Part shown: one piece after another, positions 28,168-62,690 of the stretch
Numbering within the stretch: the first letter of the stretch is position 1
How the letters are laid out: every line of letters starts with the position of its first letter
Assembly (NCBI GenBank): GCA_051294375.1
Contig: CM119266.1
Coordinates: 26,292,851 to 26,356,850, forward strand
Direction: 5' to 3'
Length of the DNA stretch: 64,000 nt
Source: Paraspadella gotoi
Taxonomy: Eukaryota > Animalia > Chaetognatha
Position numbers and translations under genes: made by a program
The notes under the pieces: generated by a model
The model's database searches: none
What the model was told of the DNA's origin: nothing
Seen by the model: only the letters and a program-made list of their open reading frames with translations

Positions 28168-31100
28168 TCACCACCCTTTTTTCTTCTTTTTTCCTTGTGG
28201 TTTCTTGCCCTTATTTCCACCGCTTCCGGATGCTTTTTGCTGAGACTGTTGCTGCTGTTGTGGTACCGATTTCCCGCCAGTGCTCTGTAGCGTCGGAGAG
28301 GCTGTTGGAGGTGAAGCAGCCTTCGGTACGGCTCCTTAAACAAGCGGATAAAAAGAAATTCATCTTCCCCTAAAAAAAACCTCAAATCTCTCCCAAATCC
28401 CAAAGATAAACCCTTACCTGGGGCAGGTTTAGACGCGTCCAAACCCTCCACGGTTCCAACGCCGCCCTGTGTTCCTTTGCCAATTCCGCCGTCTTTGCGC
28501 TTGTCGCGACGTCGGCCCTTGTAATTAGAGCGATCCTTGCGAGGCAGCCAGCGTTCGGGATCAGGATCGGATTTTGGATCAAAGTTCTTTGGGAGTTTTC
28601 CTCGTCGTTTGCGGCGTTTCTTTGATTTCGACAGTAGGAGTTCCGTAGCCCCGGCTTTAACTGAGAAAAAAGAAAGCGATTAATCGTGGTTTGTAGCGGT
28701 AGTATTTCATACCCGGCATCGTCTTCCACAGGTTGAACAATTAAGCGGGATGGGAGACTTACCCCCGGCGACAGAAGGCGATGTTTTCTTGTCGTCGTCC
28801 TTGGTCTGAGTCTTTCTAGAGTACTTGGGACCCGAAGCGAAACAGTGAGCCTCCAGCTCGTCAACGTTAACGCCGTGAGCCATTTCCTCGGGTGATGGCA
28901 AATCGCGAGAAACCTGGATCAGAAAAAAAAATTTGCTCGAGAACGACATTTTCGAATTTTCGAAAAAAATATTTTGACTAAAAGATGCGCTAACCTTCTG
29001 CGCCTTCACCGGATCAATTGTGGCGTAGGCGGTAATGAGCTGCGCCAACAATCTCAGATCTCTCGGAGCCTTGGTGCGCAATTCCTCTAACAACGTCACA
29101 GCACTGGAATTTTGCCCCAGAGAAAGCATAGTCGAAGCGCATTCTCGCATCAGCATTTCTAAAGACGAGTCACTCAACCGGTTCTGTTTTGAAACATAGT
29201 TATCCATATGAAAATTGTCCACTCGGGTTGAAAAAATCAGAGTCATACCTCTTTTTTGTTAAAAGCAATAGCGGAAGACAGGTAGTCGACGGCGGCGTCC
29301 TTGTCTTCCATATTTTTCAGTAGGGCCACGACAGTAGCGACAACGCCCAGGCGAAACCGGGTCCCCTCGCCTAAGTATTTAAGTCTTTCCACGGCGAGAC
29401 TGATGGAACCTATAAAAAATAACAGTTAAATTTATTAAACTTAGTTTTTTATTTTTAATACGTATATTGTGGCGAAACCTGAATTCGCCTCCCGTATAGC
29501 TTGGACGGTTAAGTACTCGTTCACCGTGAGTTCCCCGTGAGTTCCGGGTTCAATCCCCTCACAGTCACGATGGTGTCGGCATAAACACGCCAGTGACATG
29601 GGGTGGTCACTGCAGGTCCAAAGCCCTGAGCGCCAGCTTTCGGGAGATGCCTCACACTCTTGGTCTCCCCGTTGCCATAATATTATGAATTAGGATAAAA
29701 AATATCAGGGCACCTTGCTGAAGATGAAGTTGAACTAGGGCCAAGGCGGCGCGAAGGCATTCCGAGTTTCGGTTCTTTGCTTTCTTGGCGGCCACGAACT
29801 CCTCGAGGGTCGCAAACGCCTAAAACCATTTTTCTTTAATAATTACGAATCTTTAAGATAATCTCGATCTCACCAAACCTACGATCCTTACCTCGGAGTT
29901 TTTCTTCTCGCGCAAAAATGAGGCAGCGATAACGAGGGTCAACTCTTCCTGCATGTCTGTCTCCTTTTCCAACAAAGTCCCTATTAGTTTTCGAGAGGCG
30001 TCGCCCTGTCCTATTAAGAGATAAAAAAAAATATTTTCTTGAAAATTTAGGCGGAAGTTCAACACTACAAAAAAAGTAGCCACTTGTTTCGCACCGAGAA
30101 AAACTATATTGGATAACTGAATTTCATAAAGATATAAAACAAAGTTTATTAAAAGATGAGGCGATTGGTCCAAGACCTATAAAATCAAGCAAAGTGGTCG
30201 AAAATTATAGGATGTCTAAGTATTATAAATATTTAATAATAGAAGAAAGTCATAAACTCTTTGTCTAAAATATTTTAAAAGAAAAATAAAGCAAATTTAT
30301 TGCCAACCCTCTTATATATTAAATTCCGTTATGATTTTATTAATTCTATTTTGTAAACATCAGTCCAAAAAAGAAGTGTCATTAACTCTAACCTTTAAAA
30401 ATAACATTTTCCCTATTTCGTTTTGAGACTGACTAAGGTCTTGCGGTAGACCGCCTAAACCAATTAAAACTTTTTTTGCACCAATCGATAGCTCTTTACA
30501 AAATTTTAAAAATATAGTGATCTCGTCAGACGTTGCTATCAAAGAAAATTAATGAAAAAATCCGAAAAAAAAAAACGAATGATTCATGCGATAACAAATT
30601 ATTGATGTAATTTGACCGGAATAAAACTCACAAGAGCGATCAAATGATAGAGTACAATCCCCTTTTTTGCGGTGTTTAAACATAATAATTTAGAGTCACT
30701 TTAAAGATGAAATCAATTTTAATCATAAATTTTAAGATAAATTTTTGATTAATATCATAATTACTAATATTATTAATATTTAATTTTTATTAATATTTTT
30801 AATAATAATAATATTATTAATTGACTAAATTTAATTAAATTTGTTTATTAATTTTTTTAATTTGGCTTACCCTTTACCATATCTCATATTAAACATGGCC
30901 ATTCAACTTATTCTACTTAAATTTTAAGTTTTATTAAACAAACCTTTATAATACTTAGTAATAAAGGTTAATAAGTAATAAATATGAGATATAACAAGAT
31001 AAATTTTTAATTTTTGATAAAAATTATTTTTTAAATTAATTCTTAGAAATTAAAAAATTTAATTATAAATAATTAAATCTAAATTCAGGTAAAAAAACTC

Positions 31101-46830: not shown

Positions 46831-48994
46831 ATAACTATTGCTTGTATTAAATATTAAATTATGATATTCTGCTTTTTCGTAATAAAAACTTATCCTCTTC
46901 TTTCCTACGTTAATTTATATAAAAAACCTTGCTCTTCCTTCAGCCATAAGCCGCTATAGGTAGGAGTAGACGCACCTAATGGGGCGTGTCAAAAATTTAG
47001 AGCGAGTTCATGCTCAAAAAAAATATATACATTTTTAAGTATACTTTCAATGGACAAAAAATTTCTTATATGGCTCTATATCCTAATAATTAATTTTTAA
47101 TATTTATTTATAGATAAGAAATGCCGAAAATTTTTTAAATCAATTTTATATTTAAAGACCAGATTCAGATAGCTCATAAAAAGTTGACTGCACAAAATAT
47201 AATTCTTTTTTAAATATTTTTATGATAAGTCAAAAATAAGAAAAACTATAAAAATTGTCATCATCATTATCTTTTGATGATTTTATTATTTTTTTAAAAT
47301 ATTTACTGAAAAAATGTAAGAATTTTTAAAAGCTGTAATTCTATTTCTGGATTATCTTTTTATGCTCTATTAGAATCCATCAAAAAATTGAAGATTTCAA
47401 AAATGTTTTTTCTCTATATAGTAATATGATAATCTTAATTAGGATAGTACCCTCAGAAAAAAGTATTTTTGACAAAAAATATTTCAATACTATAAACTAA
47501 GCTCAAGATAGATTATTTTAAAGCTGTATACATTAGCATTAAAATTTCATCGACTATGGCTACTATAGGGGTCTAAAATTAAATAAAGCCAAAATTAATT
47601 TTAAATAAATTTCTGACAAGAAGAAATGTGGAAATGGCACCAATTTAAAAAAAAAGAAACTAATAATAAACTACCCGTAATGGTTGTCTAGGCCCTAGAC
47701 TAGGGAGCTGGTCTTTCCCTAACGTCGAGCATTTTGGTGTGCAATATATGGTAATTATTGGATTGAGGAAAATAATCTTACCGGAAGCTTTATAAATCCT
47801 AATATATATAAATACCATTAAATACGACCATGCAAACGGGTACAACGTGGCGCGAAGTAATTTGGCGATTCTCTATTTACTAACTGGCCGCCGCCGAAGT
47901 CATCGTCTCATCGCGCCGAATGGCGGCAAAGAGAAAAAAGAAAAGAGCAATCAGTTATAAATTAATAATTGCCTCCCTCGGTGTCCATGTATGCTAATGA
48001 TATAGACTGTCCAAAGTCACGGGCAAGCTAGCTTATTTATTAATCCATAATCTTTATATTGATTGTAGGTGTTGGATCCAAAGACTCGCGAATTTTGGGA
48101 TCTAACATGTTAATATGCTTCTTTGACCGTAGACGTTGTCGTTACGCTGTTTTATTATTGGAAATAATTAAAAATGTATAAGTTCAAATGAATAAGCTAA
48201 AAATTTAGATATGGCTTCTCATCATTGAGGTCTTTTGGCATTCCTGGAGATCAATACGCTCTGGAGGCATATGGAAAACGAAAAAAGAAGCGGAAAAAAA
48301 CGTAATTAAAAATTTTATTATTTATTATTTTTGTTTTATATTTGGGTAAAAATTATGGTTATAATAAATTATGGTTAAGAATAAATTAAGAATAAATATA
48401 AGTTAACTAAAAAAATAAATTAAGGTTAAAAATAAGTTAAGGGTAAATTAAGGTTAGGGGTAAATTAGGGTTAGGGGTAAGTTAAGGTTAAATTTAAAAT
48501 AAAGTTTTAGCTTAAATATACAATAATTCAAAATTTTAAAAAATATTTTAATATTAATAAATTTATAAAAAATATAATATTAATATTTATAAAGTAATAG
48601 TTTTTATTTATGATTATAACGATCATTTAATAATTCGGAGAGAGAAAGTGTGAGAGAGGATATCAAGGTTAAAATTACCCTTCTCTTTTTCTTAAAGTTA
48701 ATATTTAAATATTCTTCAAAATTAGATGAAGGTTCGAAGAACAAAAACCAAAACATGTCCGAATTATTAAATGATCGTTATAATCACAAATCAAAAACTG
48801 TTACTTTGTAAATATATATCAAAAGCAACAAAAAAATAAAAATAATATTTTTTTTAAAATTATTCGCCTGTGAAGCTTATCATTGTTATTATGGTCTTAA
48901 ATTTTATTTTTTCACAAAAAAAACGTCAATGAATTATCATATCAATGAATGATTATGATCGGATCAATGAATGATTATTATTGGATCAATAAAT

Positions 48995-49290
48995 GATTAT
49001 CATCGCATCCATCATTTGGTTATCGTCGCATCAATCATTTGGTTATCGTCGCATTCACTCATTTGGTTATCGTCGCATCAATCATTTGGTTATCGTCGCA
49101 TCAATCATTGGTTATCGTCGCATCAATCATTTGGTTATCATCGCATCAATCATTTGGTTATCGTCGCATCAATCATTTGGTTATCGTCGCATCAATCATT
49201 TGGTTATCGTCGCATCAATCATTTGGTTATCGCTCGCATCAATCATTCTTGGTTTATCGTCGCATCAATCATTTGGTTATCATCGCGACA
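48995..49290. repeat. 23-bp minisatellite (ATCAATCATTTGGTTATCGTCGC)n, followed by AT-rich degenerate tandems to about 49620
   Basis: About 12 units are visible. A related degenerate array lies on the opposite strand at about 11240-11525. Confidence 0.9.
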
Positions 49291-49840
49291 ATCATATAAC
49301 ATATCAATCAATTACTATTACAATAATCAATCAATTACTATTACAATAATCAATCAATTACTATTACATTATTATATTAATCAATAAATTAATATTACAT
49401 TAATCAATAAATTAATATTACATTAATCAATAAATTATAATTACATTAATCAATCAATTATAATTACATTAATCAATCAATTATAATTACATCAATCAAT
49501 CAATTATAATTACATCAATCAATCAATTATTATTATAACAATCAATCAATTATTATTACATAATCAATTATTATTACATCAATCCATCAATTACTATTAT
49601 ATCAATCAATAATTTATTATTACAGAAGATTACTAAAGAAGATAAGACTATACAAAAAAATGGTTATCATCATCAAATTCTAGACTTTATTACACTAAAA
49701 TATATATGTACCTCACTTGACTTGTTATATTTCGTTATTTTTCAACGTCCTACTAAATAAGGTATATTTCATAAATGAAGATTTTAAAGTGAAGAAAGAG
49801 AAAGAGTCTGTAAAAATATTTGTTTCACAAATCAATTCGT

Positions 49841-56397: not shown

Positions 56398-59300
56398 TCA
56401 GCCTTCGAGTCGTGCGCGATGTTCCGTCCTAAGTAGCCATCGGCCAAGCGGTGTAGGAATGGTTAACGATCCTTTAGAAACCACAAAAAAAAAAAATTTA
56501 ATCAAATTTTAATATGGGTTTAAAAGATTTCTCCTCTAACAAACCACTGCTAATGACGCGTTCCCGACTCGCCACTTCTTCTGCCAACGCTTTGATCCCC
56601 ACAAACGTTTCCTATGTAAGAAAAACGATGTAAGTTCGCCGCTGCCATCGCCGTCTGAAAGTCCGTTTATCGCTTACCGCTCCGACCGGAACGATTTCCG
56701 TCGACGGGAGAAGAAACCCGTAATTTCCTCGATCCGGAAGTTCCACTGTGTAGGCGTACTTGACGCCGGCGATCCCCTTTACCCAGTCATCAGAACCTCC
56801 AGAAGCTGAGTCTGTCACAATCGATAAGGGCCACAAAATTTAAATTATTTATCACTTATGCGATTTTATTTATTATGTTTTCTTTGTCCTTACATAATAT
56901 TCTTGTCGACGATCCTGTTTGATAGACGGTATGTCGAACCGTTTTGATTGCTGCGATAGCTTTTTCAGCCACTGATATCTTGAATTTTGGCATGGTAAAT
57001 CAAACCAAACAAAAAAAATCTTAAATTAACATCAATGCTTCGTGAGAAGGACAAACTCTCGTGTAACATTTTTGGCACTACGTATTCCATTGATATTCAC
57101 ACATCAAGACGAAGATCACTGAACGTTGACGTTTGAAGAACAAAATAAACAACGATGTTAAGGGAAAATTTCTATCGGGGCTAGGATCGGCGAGGGGAGG
57201 GAAGCGCATTTTGCAATGATAACAAGTGGGCAGAAAAACAAACAGTCCGTTGTCATCTCGTTTAAGGTCTTCTTTACCCCCTGTTGCAAAGTCTATATGG
57301 CCATACGGCATTCAAAACGCTAATGTTCTTTATCTAGTTTCGACCATAGCCTTTATTACCAGTTCATCATAGTCGTTGGGAACGTCGTATGTGTAGCCCC
57401 ACGGAGTTAAAAACATTTGTGAATAGGAATGAAGTGACAGGTATATCTGAAAAGTTATAGCATATTAAACAAAATTCAGTAGATGCGACTTGTCAACTGT
57501 ATATGAAATTGGTACAACGAATATAAAAATTATCCATTCATTTAATAAATAAGCTATCTTGCCCCTGACTTTGGACAGGCTTTGGTGGTTTAAGGCCTCC
57601 ATCACTCTTACAAGATAATGACATAGCAGGTCCCTGCAAGTTTTCAATCAAGACTCTTTCACAGTCTCGTTTATTCACTCTCAGAGTACCTGGTTTCCCT
57701 ATCAATGAAGTGGAAAATATTTCAAAGAATGTTTCAATTGTATGAAAAGACCACTTATTGTACTTATTGTACTCCGCACTATCATTTTTACGGCGATGAA
57801 AATCTAATACTAATTAAGCTTGATTTCTTTTCCTGCTACAGAAATCCGCTCACCTTAAAAACATTTTGGTTTTTGAGGATGAATTCAGACATGAGTCTCG
57901 TTTCTGGTTCGGAAAACGGGAGTGACCCGGCATACGTGTCGTCGCATGGATTCGAGCTGGCGCCTGCGGGATAAACTTTAGCATCAACCAATGGTTTTAA
58001 CTTCGCTCAATACTTTTTATAGATACCAACAGAAGATTGTAAAATTGTGCCTAGCAAAAAAGTCAGTTCTTATAATATACATAACAATATCACGAACTTG
58101 ATACAAAAACTGATAGAGAATGACGAACAGTAACAGAATAAAAAAAAAGTTTGAGCAAACAATGTCGGATCTGCCTACGATAATTAAGTGGTAATAAGCT
58201 AACTTGGTCAACTTGCATAATTTAATCAACTTGCATTATTTGGTCAACTGGCATAATTTGGTCAACTGGCGTAATTTGGTCAACTGACATAATTTTGTCA
58301 GCTGACATAATTTGGTCAACTGACATAATTTGGTCAACTGACATAATTCGGTTAACTGACATAATTTGGTCAACTGATATAATTTGGTCAACTGACTTAA
58401 TTTGTTTAACTGACATAATTTGGTTAACTGACATAATTTGTTCAACTGACATAATTTGGTCAACTGATATAATTTGGTCAATTAACATAATTTGGTGAAC
58501 TGGTATAGTTTGGTCAACTGGCATAATTTTATCAACTGGCATAATTTGGTCAACAGGCATAATTTGGTCAACTTGCAGAATTTAGTAAACTGGCATAATT
58601 TGGTCAACTGGCATAATTTGGTCAACTTGCAGAATTTAGTCAACTGGCATATTTTTGTAGATTGGCATAATTTGGTCAATCAATCAATCAATCAGAGAGA
58701 GATAGAGAGAAAGAAACTTTAAAAAATTCAAATAAATGTGTCTTTTGGTTTTCTAATTTGAACTTTTTTCCACTCTTACGATTCCATCAAAAAATTTATA
58801 TCCAGCTTCATCACATACTTTCCTACCCACACACAAAATTCCATTTCAATTTATCTATCCAATTTTTCATAAACATAATAATTATGAGTAAATTTAAGTA
58901 AAAATACCTCAGGTAAATATGACTTTTGTTTTTTCCATTTTAACTCATTTCCACTTGCTCGATTCCATCGAAACTTTATATCCAGCTCAATCACACACTT
59001 TCCTACCATCATACAAAATTTCAAGTTAAATGTCATATTCACTCATGAGCAATGTAGTCGGGCATTGCCTAGGTTCACCCCGCCTAGAATCATGACGCTT
59101 TCAGTTGTGACCCGGTGGCTCATTGAGTAAAGCCATCAGCTCATGACCACTAGGTACCGGGTTCAATCCCAACCTGGTACCTACCCTGCGGGAAGCGTGA
59201 GGACGGCCGTAAGCCGCCTTGGGGTATGGCAAACCCTCAAGCCTGGTTCCAAGCCCAGGGACCCGTTCCATGGCTGTTAGAGGGGGTTATAGAAGTTACG

Positions 59301-61335
59301 GACAGTCATCTTCAGCCCACGTTGCGCCTTATCCACACTGGTGAGCCCATCCTGTCGAGCGTATTCCAACCTTCTGATTCCAGGCCCTTGGTCTAGCTGA
59401 AGATTGCTCCCCTCCCTCCACTGGAAGCAGTGCAGGGTGGGTTACAACTGGGGGGCATGTAGTCGGGCATTGCCTAGGTTCACCCCGCCTAGAATCATGA
59501 CGCTTTCAGTTGTGACCCGGTGGCTCATTGAGTAAAGCCATCGCTCATGACCACTAAGTACCGGGTTCAATCCCAACCTGGTACCTACCCTGCGGGAAGT
59601 GTGAGGACGGCCGTAAGCCGCCTTGGGGGTATGGCAAACCCTCAAGCCTGGTTCCAAGCCCAGGGACCCGTTCCATGGCTGTTAGAGGGGGTTATAGAAG
59701 TTACGGACAGTCATCTTCAGCCCACATAGCGCCTTATCCACAGCAATTGGCGTTCAAATAGTGAAATATATTTTTTTGTTTTTTCCATTCAAACCAATTT
59801 CCACTCGCACGATTCCATCAAAACTTCATATCCATCTCAATCAAACAGTTTCCTACCCACACACAAAATTTCATTCCAATCCATCCATCCAATCACGAGT
59901 AATTGGAGTTTTTTGCTAAGGGTGGACGGACGTACGGACATCATTTTTTTTGCATAATTTATTATAATTCGAGGTTCTGATATGATAATAATAATTTACC
60001 GACAATATTTTGGGGTGGGACCGATGGACCGACAAAGTGAATTATAGAGTCGGAATCTGCTGATAAGCAGATCCGACTAAAAAACTAGTTCAGAAAATCT
60101 AGGAAACGATAAAAAAATTCGAGGTTTATAAACCCACCGCTTTCCCGCCAATGAAAACCCCAGTTACGATTCGGATCGGCGCCACGACAGTTGGAGAAAA
60201 CTGTTTTCGATCGCGTCTTGCGCCACAGCCGATTGTGAGTCCACGTGTATTCGTAACCGTCTATTTCGAAAAATTGGGGAAAATACTAACTTGAAAGCTT
60301 TCAGTTTTCTCTTTCCTCTTCCTTCCCAGACACCTGGATTTGCGACGGGTAAAAGAAACCAATCAAAGTTGTCAATCAATCGCTTGGTCCTCGCGAGGCC
60401 ATTTCTCCATTCTTCAAGAAGCTGCAAAAGTATTCGCGTCGTAATTGAATTTTAAAGATTAACATCTTTTGTGGAGGTTTGTCCGTCTTGTCAGAGCCCG
60501 TAGATAAAATATATAAAATCTAACTTGAAATATAAATTAGTAATTGGGTCCTTTCTCATTTTCGTTCGTTCTATTTTTAGTATAATTCCGAGAAGCGACG
60601 ACAGTGAGCGGCTATTATTTTATTTTTCAGTCCGATTCCATCTCCTATTCCACGTATTCCACCTCCTTGGTGAGTCACCAATGGTGACTCGCTTGATTGT
60701 TGACTTCGTTTGCGTCCAATCGTGCGGTGTAACGAGTTTCTTCGTCTTAAAGGGAATTCCTAAACAAATCAATTCAGGAAAAAAAACCTTAGAGATCACG
60801 TAGATGAGCGTCGCTGGTGCGATCCACTCTCTCGCGTGAATTCCAGCGTCGATCCAAATGCCCGTCTTCGGCTGACCATCCGTTCGAGGTTTGCCGAGCT
60901 TCATCGAGAATGAGCAAAGATCAAGTCCAATTCATTAAACAATCAATTCTGTAACATTACCTTCAAAATTGCTAGTGGCCGTTGCTCGCTGCTTTTCCCC
61001 AGAAAAATAAAAGAACAAATTTCCGAATGAGCGGCGCAAGTTTCGCGCATCCATGAAAGAATCTAATGAAGAATAATGATTTTAATAATCAGCCCATTTT
61101 ATTTGGTATTTTTTAAACAGTCATTTTTAAAATGCCTTGTCTTCTAATACGAATTCCCTGTTTTTTCGGAAGATTAATAATTAAAAATTTCGACAAACAC
61201 TTTGGTCAGTCAGTACCTTTGTTTACGATTACCTCGTCGTAGCGCGCATAACGGCCAACAATGTTATGAGTTTGAGATTTTTCCTCCAGATCTGTCGACA
61301 GATAAAGACGCTGGCGTTCTTCCTCAATTAGACTG
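56398..61335 (-). CDS. M14A zinc carboxypeptidase (A/B type); 5' exons not located
   Basis: [86 protein letters not shown]. Confidence 0.9.
58200..58680. repeat. 18-bp minisatellite (GGTCAACTGACATAATTT)n
   Basis: About 26 tandem degenerate units are directly visible. Confidence 0.95.
59188..59266 (+). ncRNA. Twister ribozyme motif, P5-type permutation (LTR1)
   Basis: GCGGG..GT-GA-GGA-CGGCCG-T^AA-GCC-GC-[P3]-CCTGG-T-TCC-AAGC-CCAGG..CCCGT. GGA/TCC forms pseudoknot T1; predicted cut at 59210/59211. P2 is weak. Confidence 0.7.
59592..59671 (+). ncRNA. Twister ribozyme motif, P5-type permutation (LTR2)
   Basis: Same motif as in LTR1; predicted cut at 59614/59615. Confidence 0.7.
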
Positions 61336-61479: not shown

Positions 61480-62690
61480 TTAAACAAGTTTGAGCAAACA
61501 ATGTCAGATCTGCCCACGATCATTATCGGTAATTAATTAATTAATTAGGCAATTAATTAATTAATTTGATCCCAAATGTTTGTTTTTAGGTCTTTTTATC
61601 ACTAACCACGACAAAAGCAATGACGACGATGAGAATAATGCCGATAACGATTGACTTGATTGATTGACTAATTGATTAATTAACTGATAAATTATTTGAT
61701 TAATTAATATATCTTGCATTTACATTTAATATAAAAATAAAAAGAAGCATAATCGATTAGTAAAACATGTTTTTTGTTTTTTCCATTTAAACTCATTTCC
61801 ACTCGGACAATTCCTTCGAATCTTCATATCCAGCTGGATCACAAACTTCCCTACCAACACACAAAATTTCATTCCAATCCATCCACCCAATCACGAGTAA
61901 TTAGTATTTTTTGTTAAGGTGGGATGGACGGACAGACAGACAGACGGACGGAGGGACATCATTTTTTTTGCATAATTTATCACAATTTGATGTTCTGACA
62001 TGATATAAGTGAATGCCCAACAAGATTGAGGGGGCGGACCGATGGACCGACAAAGTGAATTATAAAGTCATCCCACCTTAGCAAAAAACACCAATTACTC
62101 GTGATTGGATGGATGGATTGGAATGAAATTTTGTGTGTTGGTAGGAAAGTGTGTGATTGTATATGAAGTTTCGATGGAATTGTCCGAGCGGAAATGAGTT
62201 TAAATGGAAAAAACAAAAAAATATATTTCATTATTTGAACACCAATTACTCATGAGTGGATGGGGCGATTGACTTGAAATTTTGTATTTGGGTAGAAAAG
62301 TGTGTGATTAAACTGGAAATCAAATTTCGATGGAATCGTTTGAGTGGAAATGAGTTTAAATGGAAAAAACAAAGAACCTGTTTCACTAATTGATTATGCT
62401 TCTTTTTCGTTTTATTTTAAATGTAAATGCAAGATGTATTAATTAATTAAATAATTATTCAGTTAATTAATCAATTAGTCAATTAATTAATCAATAATTA
62501 ATTAATCAGTCAATTAATCAATCAAAACAAACATTTTGGATCAAATTAATTAATTGCCTAATTAATTAAATAATTAACCTGAATAAATTAATTATTAATT
62601 AATTAAATAATTAACTTGAATTAATTATTAATGAATTAATTACCGATAATGATCGTGGGCAGATCCGACATTGTTTGCTCAAACTTGTTA
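61480..62690. mobile_element. Two HINE-like copies joined in inverted orientation
   Basis: AACAAGTTTGAGCAAACAATGTC at about 61483 mirrors GACATTGTTTGCTCAAACTTGTT at about 62667; the junction lies near 62070. Confidence 0.6.

Follow-up and report, generated by a model that had tools for sequence, protein, structure and literature searches.

A miniature LTR retrotransposon of the chaetognath Paraspadella gotoi with a predicted type-P5 twister fold in each long terminal repeat

Can an animal carry a long terminal repeat (LTR) retrotransposon whose LTRs each hold a self-cleaving twister ribozyme, and what might such a ribozyme do for the element? This question is raised by a 690-bp element in a 64,000-nt stretch of the Paraspadella gotoi genome (Chaetognatha; GenBank assembly GCA_051294375.1, contig CM119266.1, positions 26,292,851 to 26,356,850 of the forward strand), hereafter the window, whose numbering is used throughout. 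An earlier note on this DNA had proposed that the LTRs combine a tRNA-type promoter for RNA polymerase III (Pol III) with a twister. Our analysis supports the structural part of this reading, a Helenus-like terminal-repeat retrotransposon in miniature (TRIM) with a type-P5 twister fold in its LTRs, in an animal, and leaves us evenly divided on whether the element works as an LTR retrozyme.

The anatomy and insertion of the element were established from the sequence, its flanks and public sequencing runs (Table 1). The two LTRs are 97.9% alike, and the longest ATG-started frame in the 690-bp element is 60 amino acids. The element splits a host repeat, of which an unsplit copy containing the duplicated 4-mer only once is found at 62234-62259 on the minus strand, and contigs from three of four public runs (X1, X4 and X9) bridge 59047 to 59742 across the element. 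Together, the empty-site copy and the contig joint make the target-site duplication and both element ends secure. Among the 24 contig pieces listed for the element, four, from three runs, begin exactly at 59053. [quoted passage not shown] The element is short and non-coding, with two LTRs containing tRNA-like A and B boxes, as is typical of the TRIMs named Helenus (TRIMp3), and its 4-bp target duplication is that of the animal-type Helenus. It likewise has the anatomy of an LTR retrozyme, with LTRs, PBS, PPT, a 4-bp duplication and no coding capacity.

The A and B boxes lie where the earlier note had placed them, at 59116 and 59159, in a degenerate tRNA-like segment that is likely a Pol III promoter. 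The A box opens with TGGCT, which fits the Helenus TRGCY, and has AG where most of the Helenus sequences available to us have YGG; the B box contains GGTTC. ARAGORN called no intact tRNA in the element. For Helenus itself, Pol III transcription is described as unvalidated in the part of the source available (PMC10886601). The earlier note had also argued that Pol III could read from one LTR into the other because the element has no run of four T. There is indeed no such run, but its absence carries little weight because the 506-nt unit, when shuffled 5000 times, likewise has none in 37% of cases.

Type-P5 twisters are characterized by the order of their core motifs, two pseudoknots, the stem P4 and a U-A cut site. 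In both LTRs the invariant core letters of this type are present in P5 order, with standard pairs in pseudoknot T1 (three), pseudoknot T2 (two) and P4 (five), and the predicted cut sites lie 404 nt apart, as the earlier note had it. The general-base role of G59199 and the U-A cut site are assigned from the twister family, partly after the accessible text of PMC8501958. The twister letter pattern matches twice in the window and not at all in 100 shuffles, and in prokaryote genomes it occurs 26 times per 596 billion bases, or about 1e-8 per 285 bp. With the pattern letters held fixed, T1, P4, P3 and P5 co-occur with two pairs of P2 and one of P1 in 6 of 200,000 random fills. Rfam gave no hammerhead match in the element up to an E-value of 10. 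On these sequence grounds, we regard the LTR motif as twister-derived.

Natural type-P5 twisters provided a yardstick. A gapped pattern (twister core, 3-nt P2) was scanned over viral, metagenome and prokaryote-genome collections and found 6, 118 and 26 loci, respectively, for a total of 150; 45 of the 156 matches in these loci passed all four pairing checks. Of the 125 distinct matches, 37 were picked with P1 and P4 as the sole criteria; all 37 had a paired T1 (27 with G-C, 10 with A-U), and P2 was complete in 34. Because a 3-nt P2 and an A-U pair in T1 both occur in natural P5 matches, these features of the LTR motif are natural forms. A spacer of at least 15 nt at the position of P3 is present in 5 of 59 natural motifs. 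Our own P5 model was trained on 42 P5 twisters of microbes and viruses, none of them from the window; covariation counts on alignment A1 are a check on the model only, because its rows were picked for pairing. The LTR motifs score 27.5 and 27.9 bits with this model (E about 6e-7), and the next best score in the 64 kb is 10.2. On 98 held-out loci, a set that excludes 10 near-duplicates of training rows, 13 matches scored 41.8-62.0 bits, 8 of unclear standing scored 27.2-33.4 and 80 scored at most 23.8.

None of the 150 viral, metagenome and prokaryote loci is BLAST-similar to the element, and no LTR-sized repeat was found at 11 inspected loci having a short P1 or multiple motifs. One metagenome P5 twister (L045:378-426, minus strand) has full P2 and P4 and an 8-nt self-complementary P1, and may be another dimer type. 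Five metagenome contigs (L072, L073, L037, L039 and L095) contain two or three P5 twisters inside 1-2 kb.

An apparent solo LTR elsewhere in the window shows that the layout of tRNA boxes followed by a twister recurs in a second, divergent family. It was found through a weak match of our own model combined with a B box scan, sits between minus-strand open reading frames near an exon with an SRP72 domain, has no run of four T and shares just 17-18 nt of BLAST similarity with the first family. In its motif two of the three T1 pairs are changed on both sides, P3 is a different stem of 7 bp, P4 has 4 pairs, T2 is present and the P1 stretch, 8 nt long, is self-complementary. The Rfam twister-P1 model gives this motif 20.8 bits (E 0.038). 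A descriptor with free T1 letters has three sites in the window, namely the two LTRs and the solo LTR, and none in 100 block shuffles. The solo-LTR variant of T1 has no match in the viral contigs.

The family is large and high-copy. The 126-nt ribozyme stretch is covered by 1,959 contigs in run X1 and 2,194 in run X4 over all identity bands, these being contig counts rather than copy numbers. Variation was tabulated as 31 rows at a level of at least 1%, depth-weighted, from assembled contigs with clipped ends and with mapping that favors conserved words, and it fits the twister fold. The P3 loop is most variable (in X1, about 92% at 59225, 28% at 59226 and 29% at 59230), and the unpaired P2 position 59196 varies in 16% (X1) and 25% (X4). 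The commonest change in the core, G59213A (8.8% in X1, 18.9% in X4, 8.3% in X9, absent from X10), turns a G.U into an A-U and so keeps the P2 pair. One of the three G 3' of P4 is often absent among copies, as expected of a linker. The table has no row at 59199-59201, 59203, 59211-59212 or 59238-59257, and at G59202, T59210, G59216 and C59217 each single change stays below 2%.

Some further occurrences concern the same sequences. The type of run X9 is uncertain, RNA being only a guess; it also covers the flanking repeat and so is uninformative on expression. One X9 contig matches from 59210 on, beside the predicted cut site, and the 176 letters that precede the match are unrelated, a curiosity only. 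Run X10, a biofilm metagenome, contains pieces of the ribozyme stretch, and run X13, which bears a second organism label, contains 161 nt of LTR (59549-59709) with 5 differences; these occurrences may reflect a related organism, contamination or a wrong label.

Several observations weigh against a typical or readily active twister. The Rfam Twister-P5 check proposed in the earlier note gave a divided answer: the model aligns from end to end in both LTRs (positions 1-58 of 58), but the alignment lacks a loop for P1 and includes a long insertion, and the scores of 17.6 and 16.5 bits fall well below the gathering score of 37.6, with E-values of 1.1 and 2.1 over 1.8 kb or 0.064 over 101 bases. The 27.5-27.9 bits from our own model, whose training rows share the pattern letters by design, fall between the clear twisters and most pattern matches and so mark the motif as intermediate. 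P1 is a 6-nt palindrome able to form 1 pair in cis and 6 pairs between two copies, whereas the P1 segment is 13-24 nt in 58 of the 59 natural motifs with full P2, the sole exception having an 8-nt self-complementary P1. P2 has a G.U, a C-G and a mismatched third pair, hence two of three pairs; among 56 natural motifs with normal P1 it is complete in 52 and has one mismatch in 4. Other departures from type P5 are the 24-nt P3 insert and a closed P5. In the second family, P2 has none of four pairs, so that the solo-LTR copy may have decayed or may adopt another fold. The variant table, for its part, is no formal test of selection, because the family is young, the counts are depth-weighted and the ends were clipped.

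Fold predictions, which leave pseudoknots and tertiary contacts unscored, also count against easy activity. For the motif taken by itself, the probabilities are 0.75-0.99 for P4 and P5, at most 0.18 for P3 and 0 for P2. For a 669-nt two-LTR transcript, the pair of motifs with swapped strands comes to -223.7 kcal/mol, two cis folds to -214.4 and the free minimum to -250.6; the swapped pair, sharing a 6-bp P1 and fully nested, is thus 9.3 kcal/mol below the pair of cis folds, but neither twister arrangement is the predicted minimum and the swapped P1 has a probability of 0.01. The predicted stability of the circle is unremarkable against 60 shuffles (z -1.0), unlike that of described retrozyme RNAs. 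Given the palindromic P1, the mismatch in P2 and a fold that is not the minimum, cleavage may need pairing of the LTRs or may be weak; with competing folds, the motif may cut only as an LTR1-LTR2 pair, may cut once or may no longer cut. Cleavage without P1 is inefficient but has been reported for twisters, according to the part of PMC8501958 available to us, and the accessible accounts of plant retrozyme RNAs likewise predict a blocked ribozyme. In the copy in this window, the P3 loop at 59225-59230 is complementary to the cut-site region at 59206-59211, and this pairing forms the predicted minimum fold; most copies differ from it at three of the P3-loop positions 59225-59230.

Table 1. Positions of the element, its parts and the second-family LTR in the window.
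Feature	Position	Strand	Details and basis
Non-coding miniature LTR retrotransposon	59053..59742	+	690 bp; two LTRs and a 120-bp internal part
5' LTR (LTR1)	59053..59337	+	285 bp, TG..CA; sequence ends
3' LTR (LTR2)	59458..59742	+	285 bp, TG..CA; A box near 59521, B box near 59563; sequence
Left target-site duplication	59049..59052	+	4 bp, GCAA; flanks, empty site, contig joint
Right target-site duplication	59743..59746	+	4 bp, GCAA; flanks
PBS-like stretch	59339..59356	+	begins TGG, 1 base past LTR1; sequence
Short PPT	59450..59455	+	six-G run, 2 nt upstream of LTR2; sequence
Degenerate tRNA-like segment, likely Pol III promoter	59109..59182	+	A box 59116-59127, B box 59159-59170; start near 59109 estimated from tRNA spacing
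Type-P5 twister fold 1	59188..59266	+	predicted cut 59210/59211; Rfam RF02684 sub-threshold, own model 27.5 bits, pair list
Fold 1 stems	P5 59188-92/59262-66; P2 59197-98/59213-14; P3 59218-41; P4 59242-46/59255-59	+	
Fold 1 pseudoknots and other core parts	T1 59201-03/59248-50; T2 59216-17/59253-54; palindromic P1 59204-09; G59199-A59200	+	
Type-P5 twister fold 2	59592..59671	+	predicted cut 59614/59615; own model 27.9 bits
Predicted 404-nt unit between cut sites	59211..59614	+	would hold PBS, PPT and tRNA-like segment, without a terminal repeat
First downstream T-run (T7)	59771..59777	+	in flanking host repeat; would terminate Pol III read-through of this copy
Apparent solo LTR, second tRNA-box family	29468..29679	+	TG..TA ends, imperfect inverted repeat
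Solo-LTR 4-bp duplication	29464-67/29680-83	+	sequence
Solo-LTR boxes and motif	A-box-like near 29497; B box 29547; twister-like motif 29569-29628	+	

How, then, might the element work? We give about even credence to the reading that it acts as an animal, Pol III-driven LTR retrozyme, with a transcript cut at both twisters and a unit that is circularized and copied by a helper. Pol III would start near 59109 and read both LTRs as far as the T7 in the flank. The P1 palindrome being too short for self-closure, the two motifs would swap strands and share a 6-bp P1, so that mainly two-LTR transcripts would be cut. Cuts at both predicted sites would release the 404-nt unit, with a 5'-OH and a 2',3'-cyclic phosphate and without a terminal repeat, and a host ligase of the RtcB type could close it into a circle. 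In vitro, RtcB closes the monomers of animal retrozymes into circles, and dimers are required by some animal hammerheads, as reported in the accessible part of PMC7229834. A Gypsy-type partner could package the circle, prime with a tRNA on the PBS and copy for more than one round, which would restore two LTRs, and the partner's integrase would insert the product with a 4-bp duplication. For plant retrozymes, a circular template has been argued for on the ground that a linear RNA without a terminal repeat is unable to make the usual first strand transfer (PMC4918200, text available in part). We infer a Gypsy partner because the 4-bp duplication and the TGG PBS are as in animal Helenus, for which 4-bp duplications and Gypsy-like PBS are described in the part of PMC10886601 at hand.

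Among the alternatives, the one that survives best, although we think it rather unlikely, makes the ribozyme a passenger. A twister-bearing, tRNA-headed short interspersed element (SINE) or a Penelope-like terminal repeat would have been captured into the LTR, its promoter used and its ribozyme weak or dead and dispensable, with mobility being that of an ordinary Helenus. Such an origin agrees with the proposal of Kojima that Helenus arose through SINE insertion into an LTR (PMC10886601, as far as available) and with the hammerhead that comes after Pol III SINE-like repeats known from Schistosoma (accessible part of PMC6765202). The atypical P1 and P2 and the second family without P2 fit a dispensable ribozyme, and in a young family an intact core is not necessarily a sign of selection. 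Against it, all invariant core letters and both pseudoknots are preserved and vary little among many copies, the P3 loop varying freely, and two divergent LTR families retain the layout with compensatory changes in T1. By eye, two Helenus consensus LTRs from wasps in the available data also carry a different ribozyme class in this position, as detailed below.

The twister could instead be active as a leaky former of 3' ends that replaces the Pol III terminator, the templates being linear as for Cassandra transcripts; this we consider unlikely. A cut in LTR2 only would then give an RNA from about 59109 to 59614 with a 100-nt terminal repeat made of the tRNA-like segment and the 5' half of the ribozyme, and the Cassandra transcript does begin in the 5' LTR and end in the 3' LTR (PMC10886601, part available). 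The motif lies 40 nt past the B box, where many of the Helenus consensus LTRs available have a T-run (by eye, uncounted) and the LTRs of the element have none, and the weak P1 and P2 together with competing folds would yield partial cleavage. Some of these Helenus LTRs, however, appear by eye to have neither a T-run nor an evident ribozyme, the palindromic P1 favors pairing of the two LTRs with simultaneous formation of both cores, and in plants tandem LTR ribozymes yield circles (PMC4918200, in the text accessible).

It is very improbable that the element represents 1.7 units out of a tandem non-LTR retrozyme with a 404-bp unit, mobilized by a Penelope-like element and resembling an LTR element incidentally. 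Animal retrozymes do form tandem units of 150-450 bp with one ribozyme per unit, but they lack LTR, PBS and PPT and have longer duplications (both from the part of PMC7229834 available), whereas here there are TG..CA ends, a 4-bp duplication for which an empty site exists, TGG past LTR1 and a G-run before LTR2, contig pieces from three runs that begin at the first base of the element, and an apparent sister-family solo LTR with a 4-bp duplication of its own. Finally, a chance resemblance to a twister, for which the high Rfam E-values might speak, is close to refuted by the pattern rate, the rarity of the pairings in random fills and the second, divergent instance with compensatory changes.

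A gene-dense run of housekeeping genes with long exons occupies 12754-46698 on the minus strand of the window (BAF, Brix, BTB-Kelch, SRP72, CDC50, TM9SF, EF1G and FOP), which suggests a compact genome and perhaps operons. We scanned 26 of the 139 open reading frames of the window for domains; BAF, CDC50, EF1G, TM9SF and Kelch were found among these 26, and no retrotransposon domain. Among the best 120 relatives of the CDC50 protein, the named ones are invertebrate and at most 59% identical, and the others are 63-71% identical. Two minisatellites are present, with 18-bp units at 58110-58757, an array that lies inside the host repeat region on the element's left side, and with 23-bp units at 48972-49665.

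Compared with known systems, the element fits in anatomy with Helenus (TRIMp3) as described by Kojima in 2024 (PMC10886601, of which part was available for all Helenus comparisons here). Both are non-coding TRIMs of less than 1 kb with A and B boxes in the LTRs, TG..CA ends, a TGG-type PBS, a G-rich PPT and a 4-bp duplication; the difference is the twister fold that the element carries 3' of the B box. Helenus is a structural and probably polyphyletic label; the element is placed there by anatomy. In that source no ribozyme is named for Helenus, ribozymes being mentioned merely in a reference, and in its supplement the PBS start of the element has no match among the Helenus PBS sequences; the PBS-like stretch may resemble the 3' end of an arginine tRNA. 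The comparison with Helenus consensus sequences that the earlier note called for turned out two ways. No twister is annotated there, and the twister L4 motifs were not found in the LTR consensus sequences of the supplement, where line breaks can hide a motif; yet by eye, Helenus-2_SyJa-LTR and Helenus-2_SyUm-LTR from Synergus gall wasps (DataS1) have an apparently complete type III hammerhead directly 3' of the B box. These apparent hammerheads are unannotated, their loops 1 and 2 are complementary and the LTRs have no run of four T, which makes the gall-wasp Helenus-2 a candidate hammerhead LTR retrozyme.

The plant LTR retrozymes of Cervera et al. 2016 (PMC4918200, part available) share with the element the form of a non-coding LTR element with one ribozyme motif per LTR, PBS, PPT, a 4-bp duplication, a unit between the cuts that has no R repeat, and a GC content of about 56%. 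They differ in having a type III hammerhead, a plant host and a unit of 600-1000 nt, as opposed to a twister, an animal, a tRNA-type promoter and 404 nt; cleavage and circles have been shown for them and are here predicted from sequence. We do not file the element as a member of the LTR retrozymes because its ribozyme is of the Twister-P5 and not the type III hammerhead class. Literature up to 2026, as far as accessible, divides retrozymes into plant LTR and animal non-LTR forms, both with hammerheads (including PMC7229834), and a 2026 preprint describes LTR retrozymes as primarily of plants and with type III hammerheads (bioRxiv 10.64898/2026.07.22.740005, part available). A 2020 review, in the part available, alludes to insect elements with type III hammerheads as work in preparation. 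The earlier note knew of no description of this combination, and indeed neither a twister-bearing LTR element nor an animal LTR retrozyme was found in the open-access literature searched, subscription journals, preprint supplements, Repbase and Dfam lying outside the search.

The animal non-LTR retrozymes and Schistosoma repeats (accessible parts of PMC7229834, PMC6765202 and bioRxiv 10.64898/2026.07.22.740005) resemble the predicted form of the element as small ribozyme-bounded units with dimer-dependent cleavage and, in Schistosoma, a ribozyme placed after a Pol III promoter. They are, however, tandems of type I hammerheads linked to Penelope-like elements, without the LTR, PBS and PPT of the element, which does not belong among them. 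As to the ribozyme, the motif is like type-P5 twisters (Rfam RF02684, clan CL00120) in core order, both pseudoknots, P4, the U-A cut site (here predicted), the 3-nt P2 and the A-U pair in T1. The T-variants of the twister in Schistosoma mansoni Perere-3 (Liu et al. 2021, PMC8501958, part available) are likewise animal retroelement twisters, and there a relaxed P1 still cuts; those are of type P1, and each copy of that element, autonomous and of the non-LTR kind, carries one at its 5' end, which the twister processes. Twisters are known, in the sources available, at the 5' end of long interspersed elements (LINEs) of the RTE type.

Taken across these systems, it is conceivable, if rather doubtful, that animals have LTR retrozymes of their own. 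These would be Pol III TRIMs with an interchangeable ribozyme 3' of the B box (a twister here in two families, a type III hammerhead in Synergus Helenus-2) and a palindromic P1 that gates two-LTR cutting, giving in this element a viroid-sized circle of 404 nt that carries promoter, primer site and PPT. If the element itself is an LTR retrozyme, both rules for retrozymes would be broken, by an LTR form in an animal and by a twister; the twister would gain a second role in retroelements beside 5'-end processing in RTE-type LINEs; and the TRIMp3 and retrozyme classes would be joined. The element would also be a compact system for testing the use of a circular template that lacks an R repeat by an LTR reverse transcriptase, the way in which the 3' end of a Pol III TRIM is set and cutting by a strand-swapped twister dimer, and the overlooked apparent hammerheads of wasp Helenus make the wider claim testable in sequenced wasps.

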